Counted from the first letter of the stretch, positions 12,392 to 39,885 are shown. The stretch is 59,785 nucleotides of DNA from Planctomycetota bacterium (GCA_023139715.1 JAGLNB010000002.1:1-59785), one strand, 5' to 3'. Notes: a model not told the origin generated them from the letters alone. Numbers and translations are program-made.

Positions 12392-12400
12392 TTGATTCAC

Positions 12401-16250: not shown

Positions 16251-16278
16251 TGGTTGACTTTCTACGCTGAACAACCCC

Positions 16279-16966: not shown

Positions 16967-17008
16967 ATATTTAACCTCCTTTTCATGCATCGTCTATATT
17001 CAATATTG

Positions 17009-17740: not shown

Positions 17741-17775
17741 AGTACACAATAGTACTTAATAGTATAAATAGATGT

Positions 17776-18660
17776 TTATATATTTAATATTTGTTTGTAG
17801 TGAGTACGACACCACTGTCTCACGAGCCCACCATACTTCTCTACAGCCCTTGCCCTACTACCAACAAACGATACCTGTATGCGGTTCTCCAATGAGTTTA
17901 TTGTCTCGATCTTGGATGCCTCGGATGCGCCTCTTCGTACAAAGTACTGGACTTTACCATACTTGTTTATCCTTTTTACCAGTGTTTCACGCAATACCCC
18001 ATCGATAATCACAGCAGCACCACCAGGATTAAAATTAATATGGACCTGAACATCATCAGTATTTACATATATTATTTCTCCTTCAAATGTTACTTGATGC
18101 TGTGCGGCTTTTATTTTATAGAATCGTTTCAGATATTGCAATATGTTTTTTATAATGGTATACTGTGCAGAACCGTGTGTGAATACAAAGATCTCCGGGA
18201 CATATTCCAAGAACTCCTCGTATGTACATTCTGCGATTAGATGGAACCGGTTGAACCTGGGATCGGCTTCATATCGGACAATCTCACGATATAGCCTGCT
18301 ACGTTGTTCCCTGTTCATCAAAGTTCCATATATGTCTTCCAGGGTCTTACGCTCTACACACAACCCACAGAACATATCATAGTCGTCAAGATACGCCACA
18401 TAGTCGCCAGTTTGACGCACCATACAGTCTTTTTTGAGAGACATTGGTATGATGTTATACCCCAATTCACTGGCAAGCCAGGGGGTTTTTTCGTTTTTGG
18501 CAACTTGAATAGTGATGTTAAGTTTCTTACTCCAAGCCGTAAGCTGCCTGGATAACTTATCCTCAATCTTCTCATAGTCTGGATGCTGTGGTGGAAGTCG
18601 CTGGAGTTCTACATGTAGCTGCAGGATTGAAGCTTCATAATCTGATAGCGTCTTTGTCAA
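17776..18660 (-). CDS. ERCC4-type (XPF/Mus81/Hef-like) nuclease
   Basis: Signature TGDYVAYLDD..x..VERKTLEDIYGTL (GDxn-ERKx3D); TTG start overlaps the upstream TGA (TTGA). Confidence 0.7.
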   Translation of the reverse strand: MTKTLSDYEASILQLHVELQRLPPQHPDYEKIEDKLSRQLTAWSKKLNITIQVAKNEKTPWLASELGYNIIPMSLKKDCMVRQTGDYVAYLDDYDMFCGLCVERKTLEDIYGTLMNREQRSRLYREIVRYEADPRFNRFHLIAECTYEEFLEYVPEIFVFTHGSAQYTIIKNILQYLKRFYKIKAAQHQVTFEGEIIYVNTDDVQVHINFNPGGAAVIIDGVLRETLVKRINKYGKVQYFVRRGASEASKIETINSLENRIQVSFVGSRARAVEKYGGLVRQWCRTHYKQILNI

Positions 18661-19550
18661 TTTAAAACCCCCAGTTTATCCAATATTTGTTGTTCCCATT
18701 CACTCCGATTAAAATTTGTTTTGCTGTGACACGAGTTACACAATGGCACAAACTCACATTTAGAATCATCACATAAACAATTCTTATCATAATTTACATG
18801 ATGAATACATAACTTTTTACCATTATCAACCTCGGATTTATCACATAAAAAACATTTTCTATCAAACATATCTCTGATAGATTCTTTGAACGTGTTGTTG
18901 AATTTTATACAATATGGCTCGAATGATAACCCACCTTTCCATGATGGGTGATGCTTACCTTTTTGTTTTGTAGCCATACATTCCCTACTACAAAATGATT
19001 CGTTTATATCTTTTATTCTATTTTTTGTTCTAAATAATTCCTTACCACAATATCCACAACACACTTTGATTTTGTTTTTACTGTTGGCAACACTTACTTT
19101 ATTTTTAGCTTCGTCGGTATGTTTTCTACCTGTAAATGGTCCTATTTGTCCTTTATGTGCTTCACATTGTTTTTGTCTCCATTCATCTGTAACGTATTTC
19201 CCTCCATAATTTGGATTATTTTTTCCACGAACATCAGCATGATTTTTACTTATTTTTATTTTAGTTTCATCACTGTGATTTTTACCATACATATAATTAT
19301 TTTTGCCTGAATTAGCAGCACTTATTTTATCTCTGACATTACGGGGGACTTTTTTTCCATACATATAATGTTGTTTACCTTTTGTAGTTACACGGTTAAG
19401 ATTCATTCTTCGAAGAACATCATCCGAAGTTAATTTAGAATCTGGATATTTATTGATATATTCAGCTGTTGTTATTCTATGTATTCGCAAATGTAAAAAA
19501 TTGATTTTCCCAAATTTCTTTCCACAAATAGCACAAGTTACTTTATCCAT
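18657..19550 (-). CDS. HNH homing endonuclease with NUMOD3-like repeats
   Basis: Repeated GKxHSDETKxKIS-type modules; C-terminal CIHHVNYDK..CNSCHSK; N-terminal CAICGKKF..HLRIH finger; start at the ATG after GGAG. Confidence 0.8.
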   Translation of the reverse strand: MDKVTCAICGKKFGKINFLHLRIHRITTAEYINKYPDSKLTSDDVLRRMNLNRVTTKGKQHYMYGKKVPRNVRDKISAANSGKNNYMYGKNHSDETKIKISKNHADVRGKNNPNYGGKYVTDEWRQKQCEAHKGQIGPFTGRKHTDEAKNKVSVANSKNKIKVCCGYCGKELFRTKNRIKDINESFCSRECMATKQKGKHHPSWKGGLSFEPYCIKFNNTFKESIRDMFDRKCFLCDKSEVDNGKKLCIHHVNYDKNCLCDDSKCEFVPLCNSCHSKTNFNRSEWEQQILDKLGVLN

Positions 19551-19718
19551 TATCATAATCTCCTGAACGATACTTATATTAGTCTGTGAGATTATATAGT
19601 TACCTATGGCGGGATATATCACTATCTCCTGAACAAAGATAGCTTTTTTTCCCGCCGTTTTAATCATAAATATACTCCATTGTGGCAGCATGGTAATCTA
19701 CGCTTTTTGTATTTGCCA

Positions 19719-19862
19719 TTACATTTCCACCCATGTGCAAGCCCCCACATTCACAAATACTGGGCAAATGGTGGGATGTGGTGCCAATTCAGGCAGTGAT
19801 GTATGACAGTTGCCGCCATAACTTGCACATATATAACAACTATTACAATAATAATCTTTCAT
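19719..19862 (-). CDS. Cys-rich micro-protein (47 aa)
   Basis: MKDYYCNSCYICASYGGNCHTSLPELAPHPTICPVFVNVGACTWVEM; TAATG overlap with the upstream gene. Confidence 0.5.
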   Translation of the reverse strand: MKDYYCNSCYICASYGGNCHTSLPELAPHPTICPVFVNVGACTWVEM

Positions 19863-20197
19863 TAGTCCACCCTGTCAAACTTGATATTAACTACCAGTTT
19901 TTGACCACGCAATCCCTTATAGTATTGCTCTTTCTCCGGTGTACTGCGCCGTACAGTCGTGAATAGTTCAGATGTATCCCATATAGGACCAGCACCTAAA
20001 AACAATAATACTAGACAGTCACCCTTCTTCGGTAGTGTGTAGTTCCCACCACAGTATAAATTTGTATCATACTCTTTGAATGTATCTGATAGGTCCTCAA
20101 ACTTGGAATTGAGTACTTCGATAAGCCGCACTTCACAACCGTCAATTACGTTTATTGGATGTTTTGAGTACCTGTGGCTGAACTTAATGATTCGCAT
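19862..20197 (-). CDS. hypothetical protein
   Basis: Compact operon position. Confidence 0.7.
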   Translation of the reverse strand: MRIIKFSHRYSKHPINVIDGCEVRLIEVLNSKFEDLSDTFKEYDTNLYCGGNYTLPKKGDCLVLLFLGAGPIWDTSELFTTVRRSTPEKEQYYKGLRGQKLVVNIKFDRVD

Positions 20198-20201
20198 AAT
20201 T

Positions 20202-20399
20202 CTACCGCTCCATTTTCCATTCTTTTATTTTGTTCAATGCACAAGACTGGCATAAATAATAAAGAACTTCTGGTTCTTGGCGGGACATTTTAGCCCATGA
20301 CTGTTTTTTGTTGGGATTTCCACAAATATCACATTCATCATTAAATTCACACTTTTCGAAATACATGTTGAGAATTGTATCATCAGCAATTCCAGGCAT
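20202..20399 (-). CDS. zinc-ribbon protein
   Basis: Start at MPGIADD (SD GGAGGATGTGG); CDICG..x..CQSC. Confidence 0.65.
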   Translation of the reverse strand: MPGIADDTILNMYFEKCEFNDECDICGNPNKKQSWAKMSRQEPEVLYYLCQSCALNKIKEWKMER

Positions 20400-20575
20400 T
20401 ATTCCACATCCTCCTTCTTCAATCCCAGCATACACGCCCTGAGCGCATCGCCCACCAGTTCAAGTTTCGATTCAGTGTCCGGATATGGTTCTATAATCAC
20501 AGCAAGGCAGGGTTTGACATCCCCGCCGTGTTCGATCTGTGATTTGAAGACTTTGACGCTATTGATTATATTCAT
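20399..20575 (-). CDS. small protein (58 aa)
   Basis: MNIINSVKVFKSQIEHGGDV...; SD GAGGTGA; TAATG overlap downstream and ATGA overlap upstream. Confidence 0.55.
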   Translation of the reverse strand: MNIINSVKVFKSQIEHGGDVKPCLAVIIEPYPDTESKLELVGDALRACMLGLKKEDVE

Positions 20576-20742
20576 GTGCTCACCTCAATAAACGATGCAT
20601 GTTTATCATGACGAATAATACAAAAACTTTTGTCGAATGTTTTGACACTATATTCATCAATCTCAACACTACATTTTAACACCACATCTGGTCTTGATGT
20701 AGGACCATATACACATCCAGTTTGGCATTCAAGCTTTGTCAT
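20572..20742 (-). CDS. small protein (56 aa)
   Basis: MTKLECQTGCVYGPTSRPDV...; ATGA overlaps at both ends. Confidence 0.55.
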   Translation of the reverse strand: MTKLECQTGCVYGPTSRPDVVLKCSVEIDEYSVKTFDKSFCIIRHDKHASFIEVST

Positions 20743-21059
20743 TCTTGCATCACTTCCAACACAGCATTAGCACAACTCTTCGCACATTTCATATCTTTCG
20801 AGAAGTATGCATAATTCAGTTCATCGAACATATCTGTGATATAGTACCCGGCTTCAACCTCTCTTATTATTGGCTCAACTTGTACATAATCCCCGACAGC
20901 TGAAATGAACAGTTCTACTTTAAGTTCATGCCCGTGATTACGCAGTACGTTTCTGATTGCTAATACACAATCTAATTTATTGTAAATGCAGTTGTTTAAC
21001 CAGCCAACCTGTTCTTTTACTCCTTTGATGTCATCACGACTGTACGTATGTATTGTCAT
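20739..21059 (-). CDS. hypothetical protein
   Basis: ATGA overlap with the upstream gene. Confidence 0.7.
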   Translation of the reverse strand: MTIHTYSRDDIKGVKEQVGWLNNCIYNKLDCVLAIRNVLRNHGHELKVELFISAVGDYVQVEPIIREVEAGYYITDMFDELNYAYFSKDMKCAKSCANAVLEVMQE

Positions 21060-22360
21060 GTATGCTCCTCCTTCACAGTATCAGGATAAAACTCATACTC
21101 TGCATCCTGGATGTCCTCTTTAGTCTCTGGCGCAGTGATGGCAATCCTTGCCTGTGCCTCAAGTTCAACGATCTTACTCTGCATCCCGGCTTTCCTGGTC
21201 ATCAGTTCGATTGTCTGTTTGTGCAGGTCGTCCATGTTACCAGGGTATTCTAAGTTTACTACATAGATTGTTTGTGCTGTTGGACTTCCTACTGGATTCA
21301 CAGATTGCGGTGCTATAGTCATCTTCAACGGTATGTCTGCCAGGACTCCACCTGTAAGGCTCTGTATGAAGAATAGGGATGAAAGTATGGATCTGATACT
21401 ATTGACCGATGTAGTCCTGAATTTATATACTCCTCCGAGACGGGGTGCGTCCTTCAATACTACAGACAGAATACCATTTGGTTTGCATTTTTTAGTTGCA
21501 AAGACAGGACATGTATCAGGATTACATACTAGTTCAGTTCCATCTGCTTGTACTGCCTTTTCACCATCACCGCTACACATACATTTTCCACCTTTGTATT
21601 GATTGAACCTGGTAAAAAAGTTCAGTGTTGGATTGTTATATAACAGTGATACATCCAACTCCTTACAGTCATCGCCTATAAGGCCCATAACTGCTGCGTC
21701 TGGTATAAAGTCGCCATTGTCATCTTTGTGTAGGGTCACTACCTCAAAATGATTGAACTTCTCGGGCGGGCGGTATTCATTACCTGCTCTTGATTTCTTC
21801 ATTTCGCCCTTGCGACCAATCTTGATCTTACCAATCTCTTTAAGTCCTGGTACAAATGTCTTGATCATTGTTCCTTGTGGGATAAATGGTGCTGGTGGTG
21901 CTGTTGAATGTACGATCTCAGCGGGTGCTTGTTTTGTCACCATTTCAGCCGTTACTTTAGCAGGATCATCATCTGAGAATGATTCTGTGTCTTTTATATA
22001 TTGAGCCGTTTCTTGGTTTATCGATTTCTCTGGCTGCACTGGTGTGGCCCCCTGCATGGTAGTAGTCACAATGATGTCTGCATCTGTCCTCGAAGGCATC
22101 CTGCCATCCTCTGCCTCGGTGATCATCTTACCAACTTTTTCCAATGTCTTGTGTTCGTCATCTTCGGCAATCTTCTTCCCATCGGCGTTGAAATATGCCT
22201 TGATCGGAGATTCGTTCAAGTTAACTACGATAGTTTTCATGCCGTGTTCCTGGGTATACATTCCTTGGAATTGTTCCTTTTCTGTGAATCCTGCGATTTC
22301 AAGCGCCTGTACTATTAATTCTTTCTTCTGTTCTGGTGTTGCTGTCATATCATCGTTCAT
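21056..22360 (-). CDS. conserved phage-type protein with Cys cluster (replication or recombination candidate)
   Basis: Start at MNDDM (SD CAGGAGGA); acidic N-terminal half; C-terminal KIGRKG..CMCSGDG..CNPDTCP..CKPNG..GGVYKFRTTS pattern; function not assigned. Confidence 0.6.
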   Translation of the reverse strand: MNDDMTATPEQKKELIVQALEIAGFTEKEQFQGMYTQEHGMKTIVVNLNESPIKAYFNADGKKIAEDDEHKTLEKVGKMITEAEDGRMPSRTDADIIVTTTMQGATPVQPEKSINQETAQYIKDTESFSDDDPAKVTAEMVTKQAPAEIVHSTAPPAPFIPQGTMIKTFVPGLKEIGKIKIGRKGEMKKSRAGNEYRPPEKFNHFEVVTLHKDDNGDFIPDAAVMGLIGDDCKELDVSLLYNNPTLNFFTRFNQYKGGKCMCSGDGEKAVQADGTELVCNPDTCPVFATKKCKPNGILSVVLKDAPRLGGVYKFRTTSVNSIRSILSSLFFIQSLTGGVLADIPLKMTIAPQSVNPVGSPTAQTIYVVNLEYPGNMDDLHKQTIELMTRKAGMQSKIVELEAQARIAITAPETKEDIQDAEYEFYPDTVKEEHT

Positions 22361-22362
22361 TA

Positions 22363-22551
22363 TTATTCCTCCTGTTTGTCTGGGCACAATGCTTTTCTCA
22401 TTGTTTTTATTATAAAATCAATTGCAGCTTCAGATAGATTATATTGTTGTATATCAACATATTCGCCTTTTTTCATATCATCAAACAAATGAGTGAGTGT
22501 TTCAATATCCTGCATATCCAAGATGTTGTTTTTGGTGGTCATATTTATCAT
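22363..22551 (-). CDS. hypothetical protein
   Basis: ATGA overlap with the upstream gene. Confidence 0.6.
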   Translation of the reverse strand: MINMTTKNNILDMQDIETLTHLFDDMKKGEYVDIQQYNLSEAAIDFIIKTMRKALCPDKQEE

Positions 22552-23883: not shown

Positions 23884-23949
23884 GGGCCATTGCTTCTCCT
23901 AGTGTTCGCCGACGCCACTATACAACTTTCAACGGTGTATAGTCCGCAA

Positions 23950-24027
23950 TGCAGCCTGCCAGATTTGAACTGGCGATCTCCAAACCCCTTGAGTTTGGCG
24001 AGATAGTCCATGCTTCTCCAAGGCTAC
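23950..24027 (-). tRNA. tRNA-like gene with an expanded anticodon arm (no encoded CCA)
   Basis: GTAGCCT/AGGCTGC acceptor, GAGA/TCTC D stem with A14 and GG, GCCAG-TTCAAAT-CTGGC T arm, 5-nt variable loop. The anticodon arm CCAAA-CUCAAGGGG-UUUGG is 2 nt too long. Confidence 0.7.
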
Positions 24028-24039
24028 ATGATGTATTTA

Positions 24040-27135: not shown

Positions 27136-27531
27136 TCACCTTTTAGATTTCTTCTTTACAATCATATCCGCAAGTATGTGTAATTCAATCGCAACAAACA
27201 TCCCGGCGCACGGAACCAACAATCGCACATCAAAGAAATTAACCTCTGCGCCGATTGCCAACACCAATAAAAAGATTAGAAATGCCAGATATCCAATAAG
27301 TGACAGCGGTCCGAAAATGATATGATGGCTTGTTTTACGGTGTTTGAACAAATCTTTATACGGTTTCCATACTATCCTAAGTAATTTCCAACGTTTATAA
27401 ATCCTACTATCAACGTCAAGATCAGGGCTCAAAAAATAGGTGGAGAACACATATGCCAGCGAGAATATAAAAATATTCAGGCAGGCTAATTCAAGATAGA
27501 TAAGTCCTGGAACTATTCCAATCAACAGCAA
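27136..27531 (-). CDS. polytopic membrane protein, DUF2227-like (putative metal-binding)
   Basis: SPDLDVDS and HRKTSHH motifs between TM helices; the track start is TTG; the in-frame extension to 27567 begins at ACG behind GGAGG (see findings). Confidence 0.6.
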   Translation of the reverse strand: MLLIGIVPGLIYLELACLNIFIFSLAYVFSTYFLSPDLDVDSRIYKRWKLLRIVWKPYKDLFKHRKTSHHIIFGPLSLIGYLAFLIFLLVLAIGAEVNFFDVRLLVPCAGMFVAIELHILADMIVKKKSKR

Positions 27532-27691
27532 AAGGTTGATGCGCTCGTGTGTGCGGTGGTCTGGCGTGGCTGCGTCCTCCTGAAAAATATAATATTTATT
27601 CTATTGTTATATATGCCGTGGGAATCGGTGGTCAATTCTGGCTCCGTTTCGTAAAATAATTCATAATAATCCACAGATATGAGAATTCCAT

Positions 27692-30145
27692 TTATTGAAT
27701 CACATCAAGATAATCCTGTAATGCCTGTCCGCGCCTCACGACAAAATCCTCACCGAGTGCCTTAACCATTTTCTTATGATATCCTGAAGCACAAACAAAT
27801 TTCACATTAGAATAATTGCTCTGCGTCCTGAATTTCTTTTCTATAAGCTCTGGTTCGCTGTGACTGCCAGCTCGCTCATATTCAATAGCATGAGTATTTT
27901 CGTTAGATTTGAATGTAATATCTGCGCCATCGAAATGACTCACTTCAACATCTTCGGCACCGTTAAGGATTAATTGTCCTGCGATTGACATTACTGTTGC
28001 GAAATGATCAACAGACTGATTCGATGGTATGTCTGCTGTTTTGATCCATGCCGTGACCATTCCAGCACCGAAGGCATTTGCAACAGGTGTCCGAGTCCAT
28101 CCCTGGATCAGCGTAGATCCTGGCGCCCAGGCATCCAAGCAGAAGCCATTCTCCATTACTAATTTGATAAGCCTTTCATCAAGTACAGACAAATCAGATT
28201 CAAGAGCCACAGCCTTTTTTTCATTTTTTAAATATGCACCTTTAATAACATCATGTTCAAGTTTGGTGGGTTTAAATATCATAGGATATTTTGATTTTCC
28301 TACAATTAACAAGCCCTCTCCAACTGTAGAATTCACTATGTTTTCTTCATCTGTTGAATCTAGCCCCAAATATTCAGAGACATGTTTGATATTTGCAGCA
28401 TCCATATTATTACCTAATATAATCTTCAAGAATGTATTGGTCTGGAATTCAACATCTACATTGGTTTTCTTGAACACTGCAGCATCCTGGTTGAATAGCC
28501 ACAGCCCCACACTCTGGCTGGCACCCTGGGTAAGGGCAGTCACAAGGAAATTAGACATCCTAGGATTCTGCAGGAATACCCTGGCTTCATCAATTGCAAG
28601 GATCGTCCCTTTCTTAGTATCGGTGCTGAATCTCTGCCCCATCATACCGGCTATAAGAATTCTCATAGGGTCCTCTATGTCTGCGGCGGTCCCGGACATA
28701 TCAATCACTATAAAATCTTTCGACAGGTCTATGTTCTTGTCTGTCTGGTGATTGAGATATTCTAATACTCCACCTTCACCAAGGGAGAATGTTTTCCTTA
28801 GAACCGCTTTGATTGTTTTCTTATCATCGCTGTCTGTAGTGTTCTTAAGTTCTTCTTCCCAGATTGCAAATAGATCTGTTAGTACTGGCCATTTTGCATC
28901 ATGCCAGGTAGATGGGATGTTACGGTATATCCCTGCATTTTCATAGCATTTGTTCAGGCTGTAATCTATGAAATTTGCCATGTTTACTGAGCCGGTATCC
29001 TTGAACCATTCATCAAAGAATAAGTTCAACGTGCCTTTGTGATTGTTGAATGCATGGATATATTTTTCAGGGTCCTCTTTCAGCTGCGACCGATCATATA
29101 GTATCTGCATTGGATTTATATTTCTACCGCCTGGCCCAGTCTCTATAAGCTCCGCAGAATCACCGAGGTAATCCACTATAGCCTTGTGGTCGGTGTTCTT
29201 ATCGGCCTTTGGAGTACAATAGATAATCCGCTTGTTGAGCATTGACATAGCTCTCCATAGCAACATGAGCATGGTGAAGGTCTTACCGCTCTGGGTAGGA
29301 CCGAATACAATACAGTGAAGTGCAGCTAGGGCATCTATGTCCACCACGATCTGTTTATTGGTCTTCTTGTCGAATCCGAAGAACAGCCCTTGTTTATCCG
29401 ACTTACTATTTGGATTAGAGACCGGCACAATCATCGATGCATATGGGGCCAATACTTCTATCTGTGTATAGTCTGGTGACTTGTTATATGGCTGCGCCGC
29501 AAGGAGTGTTTGTTTATGCCTGAAATCAGGGATCTCAAACTCAACACTTTCCTGGCCCATGATTGACTTAATATCAGATTCAAGTATGTTCAGTCCTTCA
29601 ATTGAATCACTTTTCATCGTGAGTATTAGGGCTGAATGGAACTGGCGCTCGTTATCTTCTACGATGGCTTTGAAGTTTTCTTTATTATGTTTACGTTCTA
29701 TTTTCAGGTTCTCATCGATTAGTTTTTCAACTTTCTCAGAATCACCTTTATTTCGATTCATTGAATCAACTTGCTTAATTTCATTCCTGAAATTTGCAGT
29801 GTTCATCATTTTGACAGAATCACTGCCTTGGATTGGAATTAACTTAGATGAGATTGATAACTGACTTCCATGTGTGGACATCTCCAGTAGTCTGGTCATC
29901 ATACTTTCGCTTAGACCTTTAGGATATCCGTTTATTCTGTCCGTAGGAGGCACACCAACGATAATACAGCGTTTATAGGTATTGCCGTTCACTATGACAT
30001 ATTTGCCGCTCTTGTGCTCTTCTATCGTGGCAGGTGCGATGTTACGTGCGGCGGCTTCCCAGAAACTCTCTTCTTCTTGTTTGGTGCGCTCTCTGGCTAC
30101 GGCGGTATTATATTTTAAGAAAAATCTATCGATACATTTTAACAT
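27692..30145 (-). CDS. VirB4/TrbE-type conjugation ATPase with a C-terminal nuclease-like extension
   Basis: N-terminal YKRCIIVGVPPTDRINGYPKGL; Walker A FGPTQSGKT; Walker B TILAIDEARVF; LWLFNQDAAVF; C-terminal DGADITF..HAIEYER. Confidence 0.8.
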   Translation of the reverse strand: MLKCIDRFFLKYNTAVARERTKQEEESFWEAAARNIAPATIEEHKSGKYVIVNGNTYKRCIIVGVPPTDRINGYPKGLSESMMTRLLEMSTHGSQLSISSKLIPIQGSDSVKMMNTANFRNEIKQVDSMNRNKGDSEKVEKLIDENLKIERKHNKENFKAIVEDNERQFHSALILTMKSDSIEGLNILESDIKSIMGQESVEFEIPDFRHKQTLLAAQPYNKSPDYTQIEVLAPYASMIVPVSNPNSKSDKQGLFFGFDKKTNKQIVVDIDALAALHCIVFGPTQSGKTFTMLMLLWRAMSMLNKRIIYCTPKADKNTDHKAIVDYLGDSAELIETGPGGRNINPMQILYDRSQLKEDPEKYIHAFNNHKGTLNLFFDEWFKDTGSVNMANFIDYSLNKCYENAGIYRNIPSTWHDAKWPVLTDLFAIWEEELKNTTDSDDKKTIKAVLRKTFSLGEGGVLEYLNHQTDKNIDLSKDFIVIDMSGTAADIEDPMRILIAGMMGQRFSTDTKKGTILAIDEARVFLQNPRMSNFLVTALTQGASQSVGLWLFNQDAAVFKKTNVDVEFQTNTFLKIILGNNMDAANIKHVSEYLGLDSTDEENIVNSTVGEGLLIVGKSKYPMIFKPTKLEHDVIKGAYLKNEKKAVALESDLSVLDERLIKLVMENGFCLDAWAPGSTLIQGWTRTPVANAFGAGMVTAWIKTADIPSNQSVDHFATVMSIAGQLILNGAEDVEVSHFDGADITFKSNENTHAIEYERAGSHSEPELIEKKFRTQSNYSNVKFVCASGYHKKMVKALGEDFVVRRGQALQDYLDVIQ

Positions 30146-30148
30146 AAT

Positions 30149-30724
30149 CTACCCCTCAAGTTGCTGACTGTCCTCAATTGCTTTGCACAATACCATACTA
30201 AGCCCATATGGAATCATTGCTCGTTTGTCTGCTGCCCTGGGACCATCAGAATAAGCCGTTTTGTTGTGTACTCCTAACGGAACATTATTTTTTTGATAAG
30301 ATGCGAACCACGGCAGGACACCCCATAAGTCGGTGGGTTTTTGGCAGTAATGTCCATAATCACCATATTTAATACAATACTGTGGTCGACCAATGAAATA
30401 TCTTAAACATCCCTGAGGATTCTCAATCATCCAGAAGGTAGGTTTTGCCTCCCTTACTATTCTAAAACATGCTTCCACAATGGACATATCCGGAGTTCTG
30501 TCTTTGCACTTTCCAGCCCTCCAGTTTGCCTTTGAGAACTCAGTACATGGTGGATGGAATGTCATGAAATCATAGTGTTCCGTTGTGTGAAAATCTCTTA
30601 TATCCATGGTAATATCAACATCACCACACATTCCAAGCAGAGTTACATCATGATCACGATCTTTAAAAGCCTGCACCTCAGATCCATACTCTGTGCACCC
30701 AGAAAATACTTTAAGTTTTTTCAT
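30149..30724 (-). CDS. miniature C5-cytosine methyltransferase-like protein
   Basis: FSGCTEYGS (degenerate motif I), HPPCTEFS (motif IV), MIENPQG (motif VI); only 191 aa with no target-recognition domain. Confidence 0.5.
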   Translation of the reverse strand: MKKLKVFSGCTEYGSEVQAFKDRDHDVTLLGMCGDVDITMDIRDFHTTEHYDFMTFHPPCTEFSKANWRAGKCKDRTPDMSIVEACFRIVREAKPTFWMIENPQGCLRYFIGRPQYCIKYGDYGHYCQKPTDLWGVLPWFASYQKNNVPLGVHNKTAYSDGPRAADKRAMIPYGLSMVLCKAIEDSQQLEG

Positions 30725-31548
30725 AATAACTCTTTCCTCAGATTATAAACAACTTCATTACGATTCTCGATCTCCCTAGCAAATACCCCCGCTCGCTGAA
30801 ATGATTTCAATACACTTGGAATAAAGGCAGCCCTTAACTGCTCCGATTCTGCAAGGTTTTTCGTAACAGGAATAGATACAATCAACGCAAATTCAACATT
30901 GACATCGTCCTTCTTGTCTTTTGCTTCCTCATATAATGAGTATAGATGTGATGTTACCGCTTTGGGTACATCTGCCTGTTTCATTGCTTCGGTTGTAGCT
31001 TCAAGAAGTGGATTGTGCGGTTCTACAATCGAATTTGATATGAACTGAAATGAGAAATCACCATACAACGAATTGATTAGATTCTTAATCCTTGTGCTGT
31101 GGTTGTCTTGTTCGTGCTCTGCTGGCCTTGGTGGTACATATAATATCATAACGCCGGTGGTGCCGTCCGGGTATGTGATCATGCCGGACTCTTCAACAGA
31201 TTCGATAGATACAATCTCTTTGAGGTCGTCAAGCGGCTCAACATATTTTTTGGTAATGTGTTTCTTTCGTACTATTCTAAATAATAATAACAGATGTAGT
31301 TTATTACTATCGAGAGTCTTAACATCCCTAGCAAGTACAATAACAATTACTCCAAAAATACAGAGTACCACTACATACCATATGATATGCCCTATACCGA
31401 TATTATTCATGAATATCAACGTAAAGCCACACACGGCAATGAATATGCCCCATACTAATGACAGCCGATCATGTATACCGAACAGTGTTTTTGATTCGTG
31501 TAATCTCCGGTATGATGTTGGAACCGGGACGTCTTTTGTTATGCTCAT
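30721..31548 (-). CDS. VirB3-like two-TM protein with a cytoplasmic domain
   Basis: Hydrophobic hairpin LVWGIFIAVCGFTLIF / IIWYVVVLCIFGVIVIVLA, then a soluble domain; ATGA-coupled directly upstream of the ATPase operon partner. Confidence 0.5.
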   Translation of the reverse strand: MSITKDVPVPTSYRRLHESKTLFGIHDRLSLVWGIFIAVCGFTLIFMNNIGIGHIIWYVVVLCIFGVIVIVLARDVKTLDSNKLHLLLLFRIVRKKHITKKYVEPLDDLKEIVSIESVEESGMITYPDGTTGVMILYVPPRPAEHEQDNHSTRIKNLINSLYGDFSFQFISNSIVEPHNPLLEATTEAMKQADVPKAVTSHLYSLYEEAKDKKDDVNVEFALIVSIPVTKNLAESEQLRAAFIPSVLKSFQRAGVFAREIENRNEVVYNLRKELL

Positions 31549-31550
31549 AA

Positions 31551-31886
31551 TTACCAGTAGTTATTAACGAAGTAGTTGAATCCATTAATCGCTAAGAAAT
31601 ACGCAACAGCGGCAAGTATAATCACACCGCATCCACTGACACCACTCTTGAATAGTTTGTTATTGTGTCCAAACCATCCGATTATAATCGCAGCTATTGA
31701 ATATAATGCAAAGATTCCAACCAGGGCCATAATCAATTCTTTAAGCCCGACTTCAAGATCGTTGAATAATCCATCAGTTGTCTCTTCAAACATATTTCCC
31801 GTTTCATCTTCTGTATCTTCACAGAAGGCTGCTGGAATCATACATAATATCAATACAACAATACAGAATAGTTTTAAGCGTGTCAT
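31551..31886 (-). CDS. VirB2/TrbC-like pilin candidate
   Basis: 111 aa: signal peptide MTRLKLFCIVVLILCMIPAAFC, acidic segment, two hydrophobic helices (LIMALVGIFALYSIAAIIIGWF, GVIILAAVAYFLAINGF). Confidence 0.5.
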   Translation of the reverse strand: MTRLKLFCIVVLILCMIPAAFCEDTEDETGNMFEETTDGLFNDLEVGLKELIMALVGIFALYSIAAIIIGWFGHNNKLFKSGVSGCGVIILAAVAYFLAINGFNYFVNNYW

Positions 31887-32001
31887 AATAATAAACTATA
31901 TAGTACGCAAAGTATATATAGGTATTGTAACCATTATATACATATTGTAATACAAAATATATAGTTCATACAATACATATATATTATACAAGGGATATAT
32001 A
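31887..32001. promoter_or_regulatory. divergent promoter region of the T4SS-like island
   Basis: AAGTATATATAGGTATTG and AAAATATATAGTTCATAC boxes resemble the 26854 box; drives both the 31886 and 32002 operons. Confidence 0.5.
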
Positions 32002-32193
32002 ATGACTATCATGAAAATCATAGGCACATCAAAAGTGGCAGCACAAAAGAAAATCACACTGATTGAATCCGTGGCAGAGTCACTGAAAATAACCATCGGT
32101 GATAGGATTGCATTCTTGAAATCTGCATCGGGAGATATAGTGATTAAGAAATTATCTGACATTGAAATGAAAGATTCGGAGGTTGAACAATGA
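32002..32193 (+). CDS. AbrB/SpoVT-like regulator
   Basis: KITLIESVAESLKITIGDRIAFLKSASGDIVIKK. Confidence 0.65.
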   Translation: MTIMKIIGTSKVAAQKKITLIESVAESLKITIGDRIAFLKSASGDIVIKKLSDIEMKDSEVEQ

Positions 32194-32642
32194 TAACTGA
32201 AATAATAAGTAGACAACGGATGCCTGATTATGGGTATGAATTAAGAACCGAGTGGTGGAGAGCAATTGAAGAAGAGGAACCAATAAAAATGGTGGCAGCA
32301 TATTCAATTGATGGCCATTATATTGGAAACCAAAAGGATGCATACTTCTTATGTCATAAAATGGGAATAAGACCAGAAGTATGTAAAGATGATAATAACG
32401 TATGCTCGATAGGATTTAGTAAGAAGGAGCAGAAATGGTATGGCTGGTCACACCGAGCTATATTCGGTTTCGCAATAGGCGATGTAGTCAAAGAAGGGGA
32501 TTGTACTAATTCATCAGGATACATTGAAGAATATATTGATGAGCACCCAGAATGTGACTTGAGCCTGCCAGTAGGATTCACAGCAGAAACCATGGATGAT
32601 GCAAAAAGAATGGCAATTGCTTTTGCTGATTCGGTATCATAG
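32190..32642 (+). CDS. hypothetical soluble protein
   Basis: ATGA overlap; SD GGAGGT. Confidence 0.7.
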   Translation: MITEIISRQRMPDYGYELRTEWWRAIEEEEPIKMVAAYSIDGHYIGNQKDAYFLCHKMGIRPEVCKDDNNVCSIGFSKKEQKWYGWSHRAIFGFAIGDVVKEGDCTNSSGYIEEYIDEHPECDLSLPVGFTAETMDDAKRMAIAFADSVS

Positions 32643-32654
32643 GGAGGTTGAATA

Positions 32655-32783
32655 ATGAATGGAATGATAACACTAGGGGCCTTTACAATCCCATTAGACA
32701 CGGCATATAAGGCAAGCGTAATAGGTCTATTGACTACAATAGCAGGATCACTGGCATTCATCATACACTGGATCATAACATGA
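32655..32783 (+). CDS. single-TM micro-protein (42 aa)
   Basis: MNGMITLGAFTIPLDTAYKASVIGLLTTIAGSLAFIIHWIIT; SD GGGAGGT; ATGA overlap with the next gene. Confidence 0.6.
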   Translation: MNGMITLGAFTIPLDTAYKASVIGLLTTIAGSLAFIIHWIIT

Positions 32784-33706
32784 AGCCTGTTATAGCCGTT
32801 GTCATAGCTGTACTTATATTGTTAAGTTCAACGTCTATAGCCTCAGCAGGACTCTCAGATGCAGCCAGTACAGCCATCTCAAACGGCATGGAAAACTTCT
32901 GCATATCAGCCGCAGATAATATATTCTCAATGTCATTCTCAGGATATGATGATTCAGCAGATAATGGCACCGTAGGATACATCTACAATATTGCATCGTA
33001 TACGCTGGACCCTATGAAATTTGAGATTACCCAGGATTTCATAGCATTTTCCAAATCAGTGTTTAAGGAGTCATATTCTATTCTGCTTTTATGTGCATTC
33101 ATAGCCGTCCTACTAACTCATTACAAGACCAATGCACTACAATCATTAGAACAGATCACAGGGGTTAAGGTTGGCTCAAAGTCGAATATCCTCGCTAGAA
33201 AGGCCATTGATGGGATTATAGTTGCAGTCTTCATGTACGTTTTTATTTATTTCGTATTCACTCTGAACAATATTCTCACAAAGGCGGTTATGATCAATAT
33301 CATCGATGTGATATCACCATCACCTGACAACTTTATATTATATCTCATGATGGCAATATCGTATCTATTCATGGGAATATTCTTTAGTCTAAGAACGTTG
33401 ATATTATTTTTATTCTGTGGGTTTGCATTGATAATTGGATTCTGTCTACTCATAGATTTTACTAAGGAATCGGCAATCGGTCTGTGTGCATACTTTGTAC
33501 AGACTGTGTTCTTCCAGTTCTTCATAGTGTTGTATTTCTCAGCATGTATACTGATTATCAAAACAGTTACAGTACCATTATACGCCTCTGGTGAAGAAAC
33601 AATGTACTTGGTCATGCTGTTGGGCGGGGTATACATAGCAATTAAAATGATGTTCGGAACTAAGGTGATCAAATGGGTTGGAAATCGGGCGTCTGCATTT
33701 GTATAA
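32780..33706 (+). CDS. VirB6/TrbL/CedA-like polytopic membrane protein
   Basis: Signal peptide, a roughly 70-aa exposed segment, then 5-6 hydrophobic helices across 308 aa. Confidence 0.5.
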   Translation: MKPVIAVVIAVLILLSSTSIASAGLSDAASTAISNGMENFCISAADNIFSMSFSGYDDSADNGTVGYIYNIASYTLDPMKFEITQDFIAFSKSVFKESYSILLLCAFIAVLLTHYKTNALQSLEQITGVKVGSKSNILARKAIDGIIVAVFMYVFIYFVFTLNNILTKAVMINIIDVISPSPDNFILYLMMAISYLFMGIFFSLRTLILFLFCGFALIIGFCLLIDFTKESAIGLCAYFVQTVFFQFFIVLYFSACILIIKTVTVPLYASGEETMYLVMLLGGVYIAIKMMFGTKVIKWVGNRASAFV

Positions 33707-34668
33707 TCATATTATTACTGTGCATCGTTCCATGCCAGGCAGGTATGAGTTCAGACATCTTTTATAGGTTTTTGAATAACTCGAAAACAGTCACAAACGC
33801 TAATGATATAGTATATGTTGAATCCAACTATATCCTAAACAATACCGTCCAATCACATAAACATCTCAGAGGAATTGTTGACATTGTGGGATTCGGCCAG
33901 ATGGTGTATATTGACGGTGAGTACTATATTCCCGGACCCCCTGAAGACCATGCCATAATAAAAACCAAGTTGTGGGATGAAGGGCTTAACTGGAATAACA
34001 ACTTTGATTGGATTAAGATTACAGATGAGCGCATAACCACAGAAGATAATATCACCACAGTTGAAATAGATATATACCTGAAATGGCACCACTCTGAACT
34101 CAAAACTAGGACTGTTTGTGGACTCAATGGGTGCACGACATATAAATGGATTAGCAAAACATATTATCATGAGTATGCAACATTTACAGCATCAAAGACA
34201 GCACCACAAATATATCCGGAAACCATCATACCGGAACTGAATGTAATTGTATACAATGACAGCATAAAACCCAAAACCATTATACATCTGCCCAACACCG
34301 CTTATATTATGGGCTACACGATTGAATTCAAGAATGAATCCGTAGAGTATTTCAATAGTGTGCTGTCAGTTGAAACACAAGACAATGGCCTTCCATTCGG
34401 TAATATAACCAAAGTAGCATCTCAATCGATATATGCCGATTCTGAGATGTTCAGCCGGGCAGGACAAAACATAATAATCAAGTCTACTGAGATAAACGAC
34501 AGTCTTAGAATATATGCCATGACTCCGTTTGATGAAATGGAAATTGATTATACTGTTACGAATTATTCAGATGCGCAGATGTTGGATAATGTCCAGTTGT
34601 CAAGCGCATTCAGTCTGTTAATGCTTGCCTGGGTAATTGTATTTTTATTGAAGTATTATAGGAAGTGA
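33673..34668 (+). CDS. surface-exposed protein with signal peptide and C-terminal TM anchor
   Basis: MGWKSGVCICIIILLLCIVPCQAG..; C-terminal AFSLLMLAWVIVFLLKYYRK; SD GGTGATC. Confidence 0.65.
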   Translation: MGWKSGVCICIIILLLCIVPCQAGMSSDIFYRFLNNSKTVTNANDIVYVESNYILNNTVQSHKHLRGIVDIVGFGQMVYIDGEYYIPGPPEDHAIIKTKLWDEGLNWNNNFDWIKITDERITTEDNITTVEIDIYLKWHHSELKTRTVCGLNGCTTYKWISKTYYHEYATFTASKTAPQIYPETIIPELNVIVYNDSIKPKTIIHLPNTAYIMGYTIEFKNESVEYFNSVLSVETQDNGLPFGNITKVASQSIYADSEMFSRAGQNIIIKSTEINDSLRIYAMTPFDEMEIDYTVTNYSDAQMLDNVQLSSAFSLLMLAWVIVFLLKYYRK

Positions 34669-35123: not shown

Positions 35124-35274
35124 AGTACAAACTACCAAAGAATATAACGTTATTTTAGATGAAATTGAAATGTTGGAATTGTGTGAAGAAATAACAAATG
35201 TTGAAGCTGCAGGCAGTGACAGTTCTGCACTGTATAAATTGCGTGCTTGTCTTGAAGGGGCGCATATCAAATGA
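35113..35274 (+). CDS. small acidic protein (53 aa)
   Basis: ATG 35113 preceded by GGTGAATCAA; the track ORF starts at 35074. Confidence 0.55.
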   Translation: MKAEVQTTKEYNVILDEIEMLELCEEITNVEAAGSDSSALYKLRACLEGAHIK

Positions 35275-35699
35275 GAGAGATTAAATTCAGAGCGTGGGAT
35301 AAACTTAATAGAGTAATGTGTCCGTCAGAGGATGAGTTTTGTATATCTTCAACAGGCAAGGGCGCAATGATGTATGATTGTATATATGGTGACCATGACT
35401 ACATGGAAGAACTTGAGTTGATGCAATATACTGGCCGGAAGGATAAGAACGGTGTGGAGATATACGAAGATGATATACTCCATTACGAAGGACATTTCTA
35501 TCACATTGCATCCAATTGGAGAAACAGAGGAAAATCAATAAAAACAGAGGTCAATGGAAACTTCCCCGTAAAATATGAAGATAATACAGGATTCCAAATG
35601 TATAATCAAGGCATTGGATATTATAAAATTCATTCAGTGGACGTTGAAGTCATAGGAAACATCCATGAAAACCCTGAATTACTGGAGCCACACACATGA
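35271..35699 (+). CDS. YopX-family protein
   Basis: IKFRAWDK..MQYTGRKDKNGVEIYEDDIL pattern. Confidence 0.75.
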   Translation: MREIKFRAWDKLNRVMCPSEDEFCISSTGKGAMMYDCIYGDHDYMEELELMQYTGRKDKNGVEIYEDDILHYEGHFYHIASNWRNRGKSIKTEVNGNFPVKYEDNTGFQMYNQGIGYYKIHSVDVEVIGNIHENPELLEPHT

Positions 35700-38185: not shown

Positions 38186-38665
38186 CTATATCATTGTTCG
38201 GGATGTGCGCCAGAGTGTAGTCGGTTTGAATATTTGATCTCGCTGTGGTTCCACAAACCAGATATCCTTGTCAGTTCCAGCAAACCAATTCCATGCATGA
38301 CCGCCGCCAGATGGTGTCATACCCCATATAATCCCAAATGCCAGATCAGAATCCCAGCGCGTGACATCACCCATTAGGATATATGAAAAGTCGTCACAGT
38401 CGTGCTCTGTGGGGATATAGTCTCTTTTATTGACTGGGTTCTGCTCAAGGAATAATCCCATAGTTACAGGTGATACTAGTTTGTAGGAGTCATCGCTGTT
38501 CGCATAGCTGTAAATCTCAGCCATTCCCGGTGTATTAGATACAATCTCCTTTAATTCTTTCCAGCCTATTCTATCTGTATCTGGCTGTTGTGCTATCCTA
38601 CGAGGGTCATAGGGCTCATCATACCCTAAAGACAGGCTTAATTCATGGAGTAGGTTTGCTATCAT
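38186..38665 (-). CDS. transglutaminase/papain-fold cysteine peptidase (endolysin candidate)
   Basis: HDCDDFSYILMG ... GGGHAWNWF ... FVEPQ matches a Cys-His-acid layout; start at MIANLL after TAGGAGG. Confidence 0.45.
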   Translation of the reverse strand: MIANLLHELSLSLGYDEPYDPRRIAQQPDTDRIGWKELKEIVSNTPGMAEIYSYANSDDSYKLVSPVTMGLFLEQNPVNKRDYIPTEHDCDDFSYILMGDVTRWDSDLAFGIIWGMTPSGGGHAWNWFAGTDKDIWFVEPQRDQIFKPTTLWRTSRTMI

Positions 38666-38675
38666 CTGTGGCCTC

Positions 38676-38822
38676 CTATGGCTTAGCTGAATCATCTATA
38701 GCCTGCTTCCTTGTTGCTTCAATGGTCATCTGTATCTCGATTTGTCGTACAATATTAATCTTTGCTGCTTCAAGTTTGTCTATCTGAAATTGTATATTTC
38801 CAAGTTCTTCGTATAGGTTCAT
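38676..38822 (-). CDS. small coiled-coil protein (48 aa)
   Basis: MNLYEELGNIQFQIDKLEAAKINIVRQIEIQMTIEATRKQAIDDSAKP; SD GAGAGGA. Confidence 0.5.
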   Translation of the reverse strand: MNLYEELGNIQFQIDKLEAAKINIVRQIEIQMTIEATRKQAIDDSAKP

Positions 38823-38823
38823 G

Positions 38824-39885
38824 TTAATTCCTCTCAACTGTTACGCTTCCTGTTCCGCCCCCTGTTCCAGCGGTTTCAGGAGTATATTTTATTCCTGTTG
38901 TTCCAAAATTGACTGGCGTTATGTCGTTACTTGCAGGTTCTGAATTGTAAGTTCCAAACCCTATATGTACTTCTTGACCATCGAATGCTTCATTTGCTGC
39001 TTGGTCTGCTGTACTCCACGCTTCGGTCCAATCTGTACCATTTCTATCATTGTCACCAGTTGTTTTAACATAACAGTCATCTTCCCAGTATTTCTCTTCG
39101 ATTGTGGCTGCTGCTAGATTATCACATGGAGCAGAATTTGCTGTCATAGAATAAAGTTTGAAACTGTGATGCATGACGCCACTATCATATTGTTGGGTAT
39201 CACCAACATCTAACAGAACAGTAGTATAAGATGACCCCCAGGCAGTTTTGAATGTGAATTCCGCTGCATCACACGGAGATGGACAATTGTGATCTGTCAT
39301 AGTTATTTCACCCCAACCATCTTTTTCAAGTAGGTTCTTGCATAAACTTCCAACCAACCTTGTTTGTGAATATGTACTATATGTTATAGATAAATATGGA
39401 TCCCACGCAGATTCTTTTGAACGTAGTTCATTTCCATCAAATGAACCATCATATGATTCATCGGTATATTTCATTAAAATACCAACATATGAATGTCCGT
39501 CTCTTAAAGCATCTCTTAGTATCGAAATAATTGATCTATTATTCCATCCAGTACTCCAGTTGTCTTCTAAATTATAATCAGTACTTGTTGGTTGATTACT
39601 CCAAGTGACTCCTGATTCTGTCCAAGTGTCATTATCGATTCTTTGAAAATCTATAGTTCTTGGATCAACTGATCCAGAATCATATACATTCAACGTACAA
39701 GAACTGATAAAATCTATAGGTACGTCAATTATTGCTGAAATATCAAACTCTATTAAGCTACGTCTAATTCCATTTGTTGCGTTTGTCTGAGCCACTGACA
39801 GATATTCAGTAGAACCATAGTTTGTAGTTGGACTGGCTTCTCGTATCTCTGCATCTTTATCTGGATAGATTGTGTTTGAAGCCAT
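38824..39885 (-). CDS. tail fibre / receptor-binding protein with DNRLRE-like N-terminal domain
   Basis: YPDKDAEIREASPTTNYGSTEYLSV..RRSLIEFDIS pattern. Confidence 0.6.
   Translation of the reverse strand: MASNTIYPDKDAEIREASPTTNYGSTEYLSVAQTNATNGIRRSLIEFDISAIIDVPIDFISSCTLNVYDSGSVDPRTIDFQRIDNDTWTESGVTWSNQPTSTDYNLEDNWSTGWNNRSIISILRDALRDGHSYVGILMKYTDESYDGSFDGNELRSKESAWDPYLSITYSTYSQTRLVGSLCKNLLEKDGWGEITMTDHNCPSPCDAAEFTFKTAWGSSYTTVLLDVGDTQQYDSGVMHHSFKLYSMTANSAPCDNLAAATIEEKYWEDDCYVKTTGDNDRNGTDWTEAWSTADQAANEAFDGQEVHIGFGTYNSEPASNDITPVNFGTTGIKYTPETAGTGGGTGSVTVERN

Follow-up and report, generated by a model that had tools for sequence, protein, structure and literature searches.

A VirB4-centered gene cassette resembling type IV secretion systems in tailed viruses whose hosts appear to be Methanosarcinales

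The stretch of DNA analyzed here (the window) is a sequence of 59,785 nt deposited under the name Planctomycetota bacterium (GCA_023139715.1, JAGLNB010000002.1:1-59785), and it is a complete genome of a head-tail virus. Between positions 27136 and 34668, this genome carries a cassette of genes centered on a VirB4-family ATPase, and the parts of the cassette belong to a known kind of machine, the type IV secretion system (T4SS). The five core genes of the cassette encode proteins of 111, 275, 817, 308, and 331 amino acids (aa), which we interpret as a candidate pilin, a membrane adaptor, the ATPase, a candidate channel or platform, and an anchored surface protein, respectively. We consider it very probable that together they specify a working T4SS-type membrane apparatus. 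Our preferred reading, which we hold with a probability of roughly 0.55, is that the cassette is a T4SS-derived positional module of Methanosarcinales head-tail viruses that does without a coupling protein and serves contact-dependent DNA transfer.

Based on its profile matches, we assign the 817-aa protein (27692..30145, minus strand) to the VirB4 family as a true member, with a VirB4 part at residues ~36-625 and an extra C-terminal domain at residues ~625-817 (nucleotides 27692-28270). The best NCBIfam model was the VirB4-like conjugal transfer ATPase of the CD1110 family (E = 1.3e-30), which aligned residues 36-622 to positions 191-734 of a 752-position profile; lower scores were obtained for VirB4_CagE (7.5e-8), for CedB (6e-7; a partial match of residues 163-315 to a 590-position profile), and then for TraC. 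Because all NCBIfam scores fall under the equivalog cut-offs, the protein is a divergent member of the family. When the sequence was searched against PDB, the sole strong match was the C-terminal domain of Thermoanaerobacter VirB4 (4AG5, E = 1.3e-10), followed by DotL/IcmO (0.0027) and a designed protein. Pfam identified AAA_10 and DUF87 (the HerA central domain), with FtsK as a weak match. A reading made earlier from the sequence only (the sequence-only reading) had pointed to VirB4/TrbE hallmarks in this protein; the motifs it named (YKRCIIVGVPP, GPTQSGKT, ILAIDEA, and FNQD) are all in the translation, and the CD1110 and 4AG5 matches bear the assignment out. The Walker A residues G282, G287, and K288 and the Walker B residues D519 and E520 are invariant among 31 homologues with 28-82% identity, so the protein combines profile and structure matches to VirB4/TrbE/TraC, ahead of the sister families, with intact Walker A and B motifs.

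Among plasmid proteins, the ATPase is nearest to TrsE/DUF87 proteins from Bacillus and Carnobacterium and to haloarchaeal proteins annotated as "conjugal transfer proteins," with ~22% identity over residues 36-560/636. By sequence comparison, the ATPase stands nearer to conjugative VirB4 proteins of Gram-positive bacteria and haloarchaea than to CedB. No relative was found in isolate phages; the matches there were only to short, unannotated gut "Bacteriophage sp." fragments (20-24% identity). The C-terminal extension of ~190 aa is present in all 80 homologues identified, with query coverage of 90-100% in nearly all full-length ones, and it contains the invariant residues D713, H714, D742, E755, E757, K770, R805, and G806. 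This domain had no match in Pfam, in PDB sequences, or in plasmids (TBLASTN). Its D...D...ExE...K pattern recalls the motif of PD-(D/E)xK nucleases, and we suspect that it is a nuclease-like domain of this kind.

The gene for the 275-aa membrane adaptor (30721..31548, minus strand) precedes the VirB4 gene at a short distance in all related loci, which are given L numbers below, and is directly adjacent to it in most. Membrane topologies of window proteins were taken from a hydropathy scan, which reproduced those of the sequence-only reading for the 111-, 275-, 308-, and 331-aa proteins. In the adaptor, the scan placed transmembrane (TM) helices at residues 29-47 and 55-73, followed by a soluble domain of ~190 aa. 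AlphaFold2, supplied with 31 homologues, returned a model with a predicted local distance difference test (pLDDT) score of 70. A Foldseek search of PDB with this model gave TrwK/VirB4 chains of the R388 T4SS for all of the top 11 matches (best E = 6e-3, probability 0.99, 156-186 aligned columns), and in BFVD the most confident match (probability 1.00; third by E-value) was a "Component of type IV transporter system." Because of these matches, the N-terminal TM hairpin, and the position just upstream of VirB4, the modeling supports the 275-aa protein as a VirB3-like anchor fused to a module that resembles the N-terminal domain (NTD) of VirB4. Two further alignments fit such an adaptor: the alignment of the 817-aa protein to the CD1110 profile begins no earlier than profile position 191, and in the 1105-aa VirB4 of Natrinema the region homologous to the ATPase starts near residue 399, behind a TM hairpin at residues 28-77. 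The soluble domain may correspond either to the first subdomain of the VirB4 NTD or to a TrsD-like partner. The earlier description of a VirB3-like, two-TM hairpin protein is supported by the hairpin, the adjacency to VirB4, and the fold; at the sequence level, the protein matched no family, and no VirB3 profile was among its matches in Pfam, NCBIfam, or PDB sequences. A paralogous relationship between the 275-aa protein and the N-terminal part of the 817-aa protein was also considered and rejected, as hhalign of the two found nothing; the fold search was still VirB4-like.

In the VirB2/TrbC-type pilin candidate (111 aa; 31551..31886, minus strand), a signal peptide and a short acidic stretch are combined with two long hydrophobic helices. 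All 11 cassettes examined (the window and 10 orthologues) encode such a protein, 105-121 aa in length, with a signal peptide that ends in an AxA-like site and with two TM helices, and the layout of signal peptide, two hydrophobic helices, and short polar loop is shared by Bacillus VirB2 and the Natrinema pilin. In locus L007, the orthologue aligned to nearly the full Pfam TrbC/VirB2 profile (PF04956) with E = 5.8e-4 and 20.4 bits, which is below the 27.9-bit cut-off; a genuine Bacillus VirB2 scores 29.2 bits on the same profile. Alignment of the pilin family to the Bacillus and Natrinema pilins with hhalign was not significant.

The polytopic membrane protein (308 aa; 32780..33706, plus strand) has an N-terminal signal or TM segment and five to six TM helices, and it is a candidate VirB6/TrbL/CedA-type channel or platform. 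Its family comprised 109 representatives in an exhaustive profile search and is present in every cassette. The AlphaFold2 model is all-helical (pLDDT 70), and the top Foldseek match in PDB was TrwI/VirB6 (7o3v_J; E = 0.31, probability 0.85, TM-score 0.34-0.38), which is not significant; VirB6 chains took five of the top seven places, none of them at a significant score. The surface protein (331 aa; 33673..34668, plus strand) has a signal peptide and a C-terminal membrane anchor, which make it a candidate adhesin or envelope-spanning component. Orthologues were found in 11 of 12 informative loci, and those of L009 (4686-6521) and L011 (6116-8212) are approximately twice as long (611 and 698 aa, respectively), with N-terminal Beta_helix/NosD/Disaggregatase-related domains. 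Based on these domain matches, the longer orthologues may depolymerize methanochondroitin or other polymers of the envelope. Cell-wall hydrolases accompany conjugation systems of monoderm bacteria, and by analogy the surface protein may be their functional counterpart.

The ten open reading frames (ORFs) described in the sequence-only reading are all present, with the same coordinates, lengths, and strands. The leftward arm of the cassette runs through genes for proteins of 111, 275, 191, and 817 aa, with junctions of 2 nt, a 4-nt overlap, and 3 nt, and is followed after a gap of 160 nt by a gene for a 131-aa protein; the rightward arm runs through genes for proteins of 63, 150, 42, 308, and 331 aa, joined by 4-nt overlaps or short gaps. 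Given that genes within either arm overlap or stand 2-12 nt apart, the earlier description of two divergent operons is a fair one. The intergenic region between the arms (31887-32001, 115 bp) is very AT-rich, contains several TATA-like runs on inspection of the sequence, and presumably holds the promoters of both arms. A repeat scan identified an imperfect 18-nt inverted repeat at 31932-31949 and 31987-32004; the promoter and terminator scan relied on bacterial models and says nothing about an archaeal host. Between tens and ~100 homologues were found for each core protein, at E-values as low as 0, which establishes that the core genes are real genes and not chance ORFs.

The 80 homologues of the ATPase range from close to distant, and many of them come from contigs 46-68 kb long, a size similar to that of the window genome. 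The five core genes are clustered in ~15 independent loci despite changes in gene order. Divergent arms are found in the window and in L001, L007, L016, and L017; a co-directional cassette is found in L002-L005 and L018; and in L006 and L012 the pilin and surface genes lie 3' of the VirB4 gene. At least 7 of the ~15 cassette loci also carry virus hallmark genes, which include the large terminase gene (TerL) in L002/L003, Terminase_3/6N in L016, tail tube and other tail genes in L007, and tail genes, RecT, and Prim-Pol in L017. L001/L019 and L018 are syntenic with the window, and L008 and L009 are IMG/VR viral contigs.

Two of these loci bear directly on the position of the cassette within the virus genome. 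L001 is an independent assembly in which the same genes as in the window stand on both flanks of the island (L001/L019). In L018, the tail module is 65-97% identical to that of the window, and the AbrB gene is 77% identical; however, positions 15300-21728, in the same slot as window positions 27692-34668, hold another allele of the cassette, arranged co-directionally. Identity to the window falls there to 38% for VirB4, 23% for the 275-aa and 308-aa proteins, and 50% over part of the surface protein. Because L018 carries a divergent allele in the same slot, we read the cassette from these alignments as a stable, fixed positional module of the virus backbone that appears to be replaced wholesale by recombination.

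A different setting was observed in L005 (GCA_040961635.1, JBFOMZ010000510.1, 66.5 kb), which has a complete co-directional cassette at ~6559-12463; its neighbors are a TnpB-like gene and genes for an Hrq1/MZB-type helicase, KwaA, Cas6b, and RAMP proteins. Elements other than viruses, or host islands, may therefore carry the cassette as well.

Both ends of the window carry a 25-bp direct terminal repeat, which indicates a complete or circular assembly. Pfam searches of the window identified a portal protein, TerL, a major capsid protein of the SU10/HK97 type, a tail tube protein, a Mu-F-like head protein, and a primase-polymerase/D5-type helicase with an archaeal MCM-like winged helix. Neither a VirD4/TraG/TcpA coupling ATPase nor a relaxase nor an integrase was found by Pfam among all window ORFs of ≥300 aa and ~30 smaller ones, and a coupling protein was not seen beside the cassette in related loci either. 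These scans agree with the sequence-only reading, according to which the genome has none of these three proteins and TerL covers packaging. The GC content of the island equals that of the remaining genome.

Homologues of the ATPase and of other cassette proteins carry the source names Methanosarcinaceae, Methanosarcina, Candidatus Methanoperedens, and Candidatus Methanomarinus/ANME-2 (ANME denoting anaerobic methane oxidizers). Because of these names and the presence of disaggregatase domains, the sequences point to Methanosarcinales, which are methane-cycling archaea, as the hosts of the viruses. In the tail-fiber region (38186-39885, minus strand), Pfam identified a 353-aa CBM96/disaggregatase-repeat protein and a 169-aa protein with an agglutinin/ricin-type lectin C-terminal domain, both consistent with binding or degrading the Methanosarcina matrix. 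The closest named homologue of the ATPase (P0001, 96% identical) comes from a metagenome-assembled genome (MAG) labeled "Candidatus Omnitrophica bacterium." As all other indications favor Methanosarcinales, this record is almost certainly a mis-binned viral contig.

Several further genes are interleaved with the core. A gene for a C5-cytosine DNA methyltransferase-like protein (191 aa; 30149..30724, minus strand; Pfam DNA_methylase E = 1.4e-6, PHROG 757 E = 2e-21) is wedged between the adaptor and VirB4 genes, with junctions of 4 nt and 3 nt. It is absent from L001, the ATPase of which is 90% identical to that of the window, and from all other loci, and it is probably a recent anti-restriction insertion into the operon. 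In the rightward arm, the soluble 150-aa protein (32190..32642, plus strand) is a full-length homologue of the anti-Thoeris protein Tad6 (Pfam PF25188, E = 1.5e-58). Tad6 proteins are phage proteins that bind and block the TIR domain of Thoeris ThsB (PMC13402655), and the presence of one in an archaeal virus suggests that TIR/Thoeris-type defense is relevant in Methanosarcinales. The Tad6 gene is likewise absent from L001 and from every other locus. Because of this distribution, we read the methyltransferase and Tad6 genes as probable anti-restriction and anti-defense inserts that are accessory to the machine; the sequence-only reading had listed both among the operon genes, where they do lie, but they are not machine parts.

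At the head of the rightward arm, a 63-aa protein (32002..32193, plus strand) weakly matches small DNA-binding proteins of the AbrB/PrlF fold (Pfam PrlF_antitoxin E = 6e-3, NCBIfam PrlF E = 4.5e-4). The gene is kept at the cassette head in L001, L007, L012, L016, L017, and L018, and its product is a probable regulator of the cassette; the earlier label of AbrB regulator accords with these matches, weak as they are. A 42-aa peptide (32655..32783, plus strand) has a single hydrophobic segment at residues 23-41 and 83% identity in L001, and small ORFs occur at a similar place in other loci. The 131-aa membrane protein downstream of VirB4 (27136..27531, minus strand) is DUF2227/YdjM-like (Pfam DUF2227, E = 4.7e-25), a family annotated in Pfam as a putative metal-binding protein. 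Homologues adjoin the cassette in five loci (L001, L002/L003, L009, and L017), so the protein may be an accessory factor of the cassette; a role as pilin-processing or envelope enzyme is speculation. A YopX-family gene is present at 35271-35699 (plus strand) in the window and also beside the cassette in L001, L008, L009, and L018, and two YopX copies lie within the cassette of L017 (8233-8891), between the pilin and adaptor genes.

Elsewhere in the window, the sole transfer RNA of the genome is a tRNA-Leu with anticodon AAG (23949-24028, minus strand). A 344-aa protein (18657-19691, minus strand) combines NUMOD3 motifs with a Ros/MucR-like zinc finger and is possibly related to homing endonucleases. 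Another protein, of 443 aa (21056-22387, minus strand), contains a "recombination directionality factor-like" domain of the Gp3-like kind; no integrase was detected in this genome.

In the mechanism that we propose, a VirB4 hexamer in the infected cell would dock on the membrane via the 275-aa adaptor, pull the processed pilin out of the membrane, and polymerize it on the polytopic platform. The product would be a pilus or an envelope-spanning conduit, for which the anchored surface protein, equipped in some relatives with a disaggregatase-type beta-helix, would make or clear the contact with the envelope. The apparatus would then mediate contact-dependent DNA transfer between neighboring cells; we favor export of the viral episome over import, and export would suit hosts that live in matrix-embedded aggregates. 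From homology to T4SSs and to Ced and Ted, we infer that a pilus forms, what is transferred and in which direction, and how the virus profits. DNA transfer is in our view the likeliest purpose because every characterized archaeal relative moves DNA and because VirB4 carries an extra conserved domain. The narrower proposal that the viral genome is exported to neighbors in aggregates is tentative. Equally tentative is a picture of "conjugative viruses" in which a pilus or mating pore provides a second, virion-independent route through aggregates of Methanosarcina, ANME-2, and Methanoperedens, the VirB4 C-terminal domain replaces both coupling protein and relaxase, and allele swaps set mating or exclusion specificity. 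The sequence-only reading had proposed a virus-encoded pilus or DNA conduit; its VirB4-centered, T4SS-like cassette in a tailed virus is confirmed, and the pilus or conduit stays a putative function.

A number of observations weigh against contact-dependent DNA transfer by a viral T4SS. In L004, L005, and L006, no virus genes were found within 10 kb of the cassette. The 111-aa protein of the window matched no family in Pfam or NCBIfam, with neither PF04956 nor PF18895 above threshold, and so the pilin topology claimed in the sequence-only reading stands on the architecture seen in all 11 loci and on the one sub-threshold match. For the 308-aa protein, none of the 80 family members scanned had a Pfam TrbL/VirB6 match, and the profile built from 80 sequences matched neither PDB sequences nor, in hhalign, Bacillus TrbL or the Natrinema 5-TM protein. 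Its VirB6-like character, which the sequence-only reading had extended to VirB6/TrbL/CedA-like topology, is plausible but unproven: the protein is polytopic and its top fold match is VirB6, at a statistically insignificant E-value and with no sequence or profile match alongside. The AlphaFold2 models of the 275-aa and 308-aa proteins are themselves only moderate at a pLDDT of 70. Comparisons of the accessory proteins by hhalign with proteins of Bacillus p78 (VirB2, the 224-aa protein, and TrbL) and Natrinema (the pilin, the 538-aa and 403-aa proteins, and the VirB4 N-terminus) were negative or insignificant, with single sequences as templates, which makes them weak tests; profiles of the accessory proteins were also negative against PDB sequences. 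A repeat scan of the window for an element resembling an origin of transfer (oriT) found nothing convincing. To our knowledge, conjugative systems of archaea and bacteria include a coupling ATPase of the VirD4 type; because such an ATPase is absent here, DNA export is not the default expectation. Finally, a lytic tailed virus has no obvious need of a second transmission route.

Two alternatives keep the apparatus and change its purpose. The cassette could build an appendage that transports no DNA and acts in adhesion or aggregation, in remodeling of the host surface, in superinfection exclusion through masking or removal of receptors, or in protein secretion, as part of a lysogenic or chronic conversion of the host. 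Pilus biogenesis requires VirB4 whether or not a substrate is transferred, and the window scans found neither a coupling protein nor a relaxase. Variability is seen in the surface protein, whose relatives bear envelope-degrading domains, divergent alleles occupy one site in close viruses (a pattern typical of surface-specificity or exclusion determinants), and the cassette stands beside anti-defense and anti-restriction genes. Against these points, the invariant acidic, His, and Lys residues of the VirB4 C-terminal domain suggest an additional enzymatic or nucleic-acid step, and the archaeal VirB2/VirB4/VirB6 sets characterized so far all move DNA; we regard this alternative as unlikely, though worth keeping in view. 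DNA import would make the infected cell, or a cell that carries the element, a recipient of DNA from its neighbors, which could be scavenged for nucleotides or used in recombination or repair, as with the host-encoded Ced system of Sulfolobales. Among bacterial systems, ComB has no VirD4 and is an uptake machine, and the ATPase does have its partial CedB match (E = 6e-7). The gene set, with VirB2-, VirB4-, and VirB6-like proteins but neither VirD4 nor relaxase, is that of the Ced and Ted systems (PMC9905601). However, the ATPase scores far better on conjugative VirB4 (1e-30) than on CedB, and its nearest plasmid relatives are conjugative; Ced and Ted are chromosomal and domesticated, whereas the cassette is mobile and swapped, and import has no demonstrated benefit for a virus. 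We consider import rather improbable.

The remaining explanations fare worse. We know of no precedent for VirB4 systems in lysis or entry, which counts against a complex that delivers incoming genomes or opens the envelope for release; its pilin-like and VirB3/VirB4 parts suit T4SS-type assembly and not a holin-type system, and the same cassette occurs on contigs with no virus genes nearby. The cassette does adjoin the tail or tail-fiber module in the window, L007, L017, and L018, disaggregatase-type domains occur in relatives, and how archaeal head-tail viruses leave the cell is poorly understood (PMC10791045), but a role in entry or egress seems highly improbable to us. Still less credit is due to the view that the ATPase is a packaging, helicase, or defense enzyme of the HerA/FtsK type with unrelated membrane neighbors. 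VirB4, HerA, and FtsK form one superfamily, and Pfam gave the DUF87 and weak FtsK matches; yet VirB4 models lead by >25 orders of magnitude over HerA_antiphage (2.4e-3), TraD (0.026), and FtsK (0.07), the sole strong PDB match is a VirB4, packaging is covered by TerL and the portal protein, and the membrane neighbors are strictly co-inherited with the ATPase. The profile scores thus place the ATPase outside a HerA/FtsK clade and rule out a HerA, FtsK, or terminase identity. Hardly credible either is an artefact or passenger, that is, a mis-assembled piece of a plasmid or integrative and conjugative element (ICE), or a decaying remnant. The window is a metagenomic contig, and relatives of the ATPase occur on MAG contigs that have no virus genes within 10 kb; however, the terminal repeat closes the genome, the core genes are all intact with catalytic residues invariant over 28-96% identity, and the GC content does not change across the island. 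The flanking synteny of L001/L019 and the L018 allele in the same slot exclude a mis-join of the island to a viral contig, and the cassette is linked to TerL or tail genes on at least six other divergent contigs.

DNA transfer by this cassette, the reading that we prefer, would have consequences beyond the virus itself. Viruses and conjugative elements are usually held to be separate routes of horizontal spread, and a cassette of this kind in tailed viruses blurs that line in archaea. It recurs in many divergent Methanosarcinales viruses, the hosts of which include methanogens and the anaerobic methane oxidizers ANME-2 and Methanoperedens. If the cassette moves DNA, viruses or genes would have a new way of spreading through dense consortia that cycle methane, and Ced and Ted would be joined by a third lineage of minimal archaeal T4SSs that lack VirD4. 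With its five genes, the cassette would then also offer a compact model for the action of VirB4 in the absence of a coupling protein and in the presence of a new C-terminal domain. Even if it built no more than a pilus for adhesion or exclusion, this would still be the first T4SS-type appendage encoded by an archaeal virus in the literature searched. Full-text searches of the literature on VirB4 or type IV secretion in archaeal viruses, Caudoviricetes, Methanosarcina, Methanoperedens, and methanogens returned no description of such a module, which also goes unmentioned in a recent review of how archaeal viruses enter and leave cells. What is new is the carrier, a family of tailed archaeal viruses, together with a VirD4-less set outside Thermoproteota (Sulfolobales and Thermoproteales being the hosts of Ced and Ted), the apparent fusion of VirB3- and VirB4-NTD-like parts in one adaptor, the C-terminal domain of VirB4, and the swapping of alleles between near-identical viruses. 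Methanosarcina is genetically tractable, which makes the hypothesis directly testable.

Among known systems, the best sequence relatives of the ATPase are found in conjugative T4SSs of the MPF_FATA class (pGO1/pSK41 Trs, CD1110-type ICEs, and haloarchaeal/Natrinema plasmids). In Bacillus mycoides p78, the gene order is VirB2 (117 aa, with a signal peptide and two TM helices), a 106-aa TM hairpin protein, a 224-aa soluble protein, a short TrsE (605 aa), VirD4, a 301-aa anchored protein, TrbL, and a lysozyme. In the Natrinema plasmid, it is pilin, a 538-aa C-anchored protein, a 254-aa protein, a 403-aa 5-TM protein, a VirB3::VirB4 fusion, a 382-aa protein, and VirD4. The virus cassette as arranged in L005 (pilin, anchored protein, small ORF, polytopic protein, hairpin plus domain, VirB4) is the same series minus VirD4 and the hydrolase. 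The shared logic is thus pilin, VirB3 hairpin, soluble VirB4-associated domain, and VirB4, accompanied by a C-anchored and a polytopic protein. The window differs in that Pfam scans found no VirD4/TcpA, relaxase, or dedicated cell-wall hydrolase, in that the hairpin and the soluble domain are fused in one 275-aa protein, in the extra ~190-aa C-terminal domain of VirB4, in accessory proteins that are not detectably homologous by sequence, and in its carrier, a tailed virus. The coupling protein, relaxase, and oriT of a self-transmissible conjugative T4SS were accordingly not found in the window; however, archaeal conjugative elements normally have VirB4 and VirD4 without recognizable relaxases (PMC6563490), so the relaxase discriminates poorly in archaea.

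Other known systems resemble the cassette in composition or in carrier. The pT26-2 plasmid family of Thermococcales and Methanococcales has a conserved block of many TM proteins and a VirB4/HerA-like ATPase that was proposed to be a DNA secretion system (PMC6972569). Like the cassette, this core module is a block of TM proteins with a VirB4-type ATPase on an archaeal mobile element; unlike the cassette, it resides on plasmids or integrated plasmids that have no capsid or tail genes, its ATPase likeness is by fold recognition only, and no sequence relation between the two was observed. Bacterial phage-plasmids are mobile elements that have both virion genes and functions of the plasmid type (PMC7969092). 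VirB4-like or T4SS-component proteins are also encoded in a few gut records named "Bacteriophage sp." or "Siphoviridae sp."; these records are short, unannotated bacterial fragments of 4-30 kb that may be pieces of ICEs, and none is a complete genome of a tailed virus with a conserved cassette in a fixed position. The Ced system of Sulfolobales and the Ted system of Thermoproteales are VirD4-less sets of VirB2, VirB4, and VirB6 homologues that form DNA-import pili (PMC9905601). The cassette is likewise a minimal archaeal set of VirB2-, VirB4-, and VirB6-like proteins with neither coupling protein nor relaxase, and its pilin candidate has a cleavable signal peptide like that of TedC. Whereas Ced and Ted are domesticated importers on host chromosomes, the cassette is borne by viruses or other mobile elements and exchanged between viruses; its ATPase matches CedB weakly and over part of its length, and it has in addition the VirB3/VirB4-NTD-like adaptor and the anchored surface protein. 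The cassette is therefore MPF_FATA-like by the ancestry of its ATPase and Ced/Ted-like by composition.

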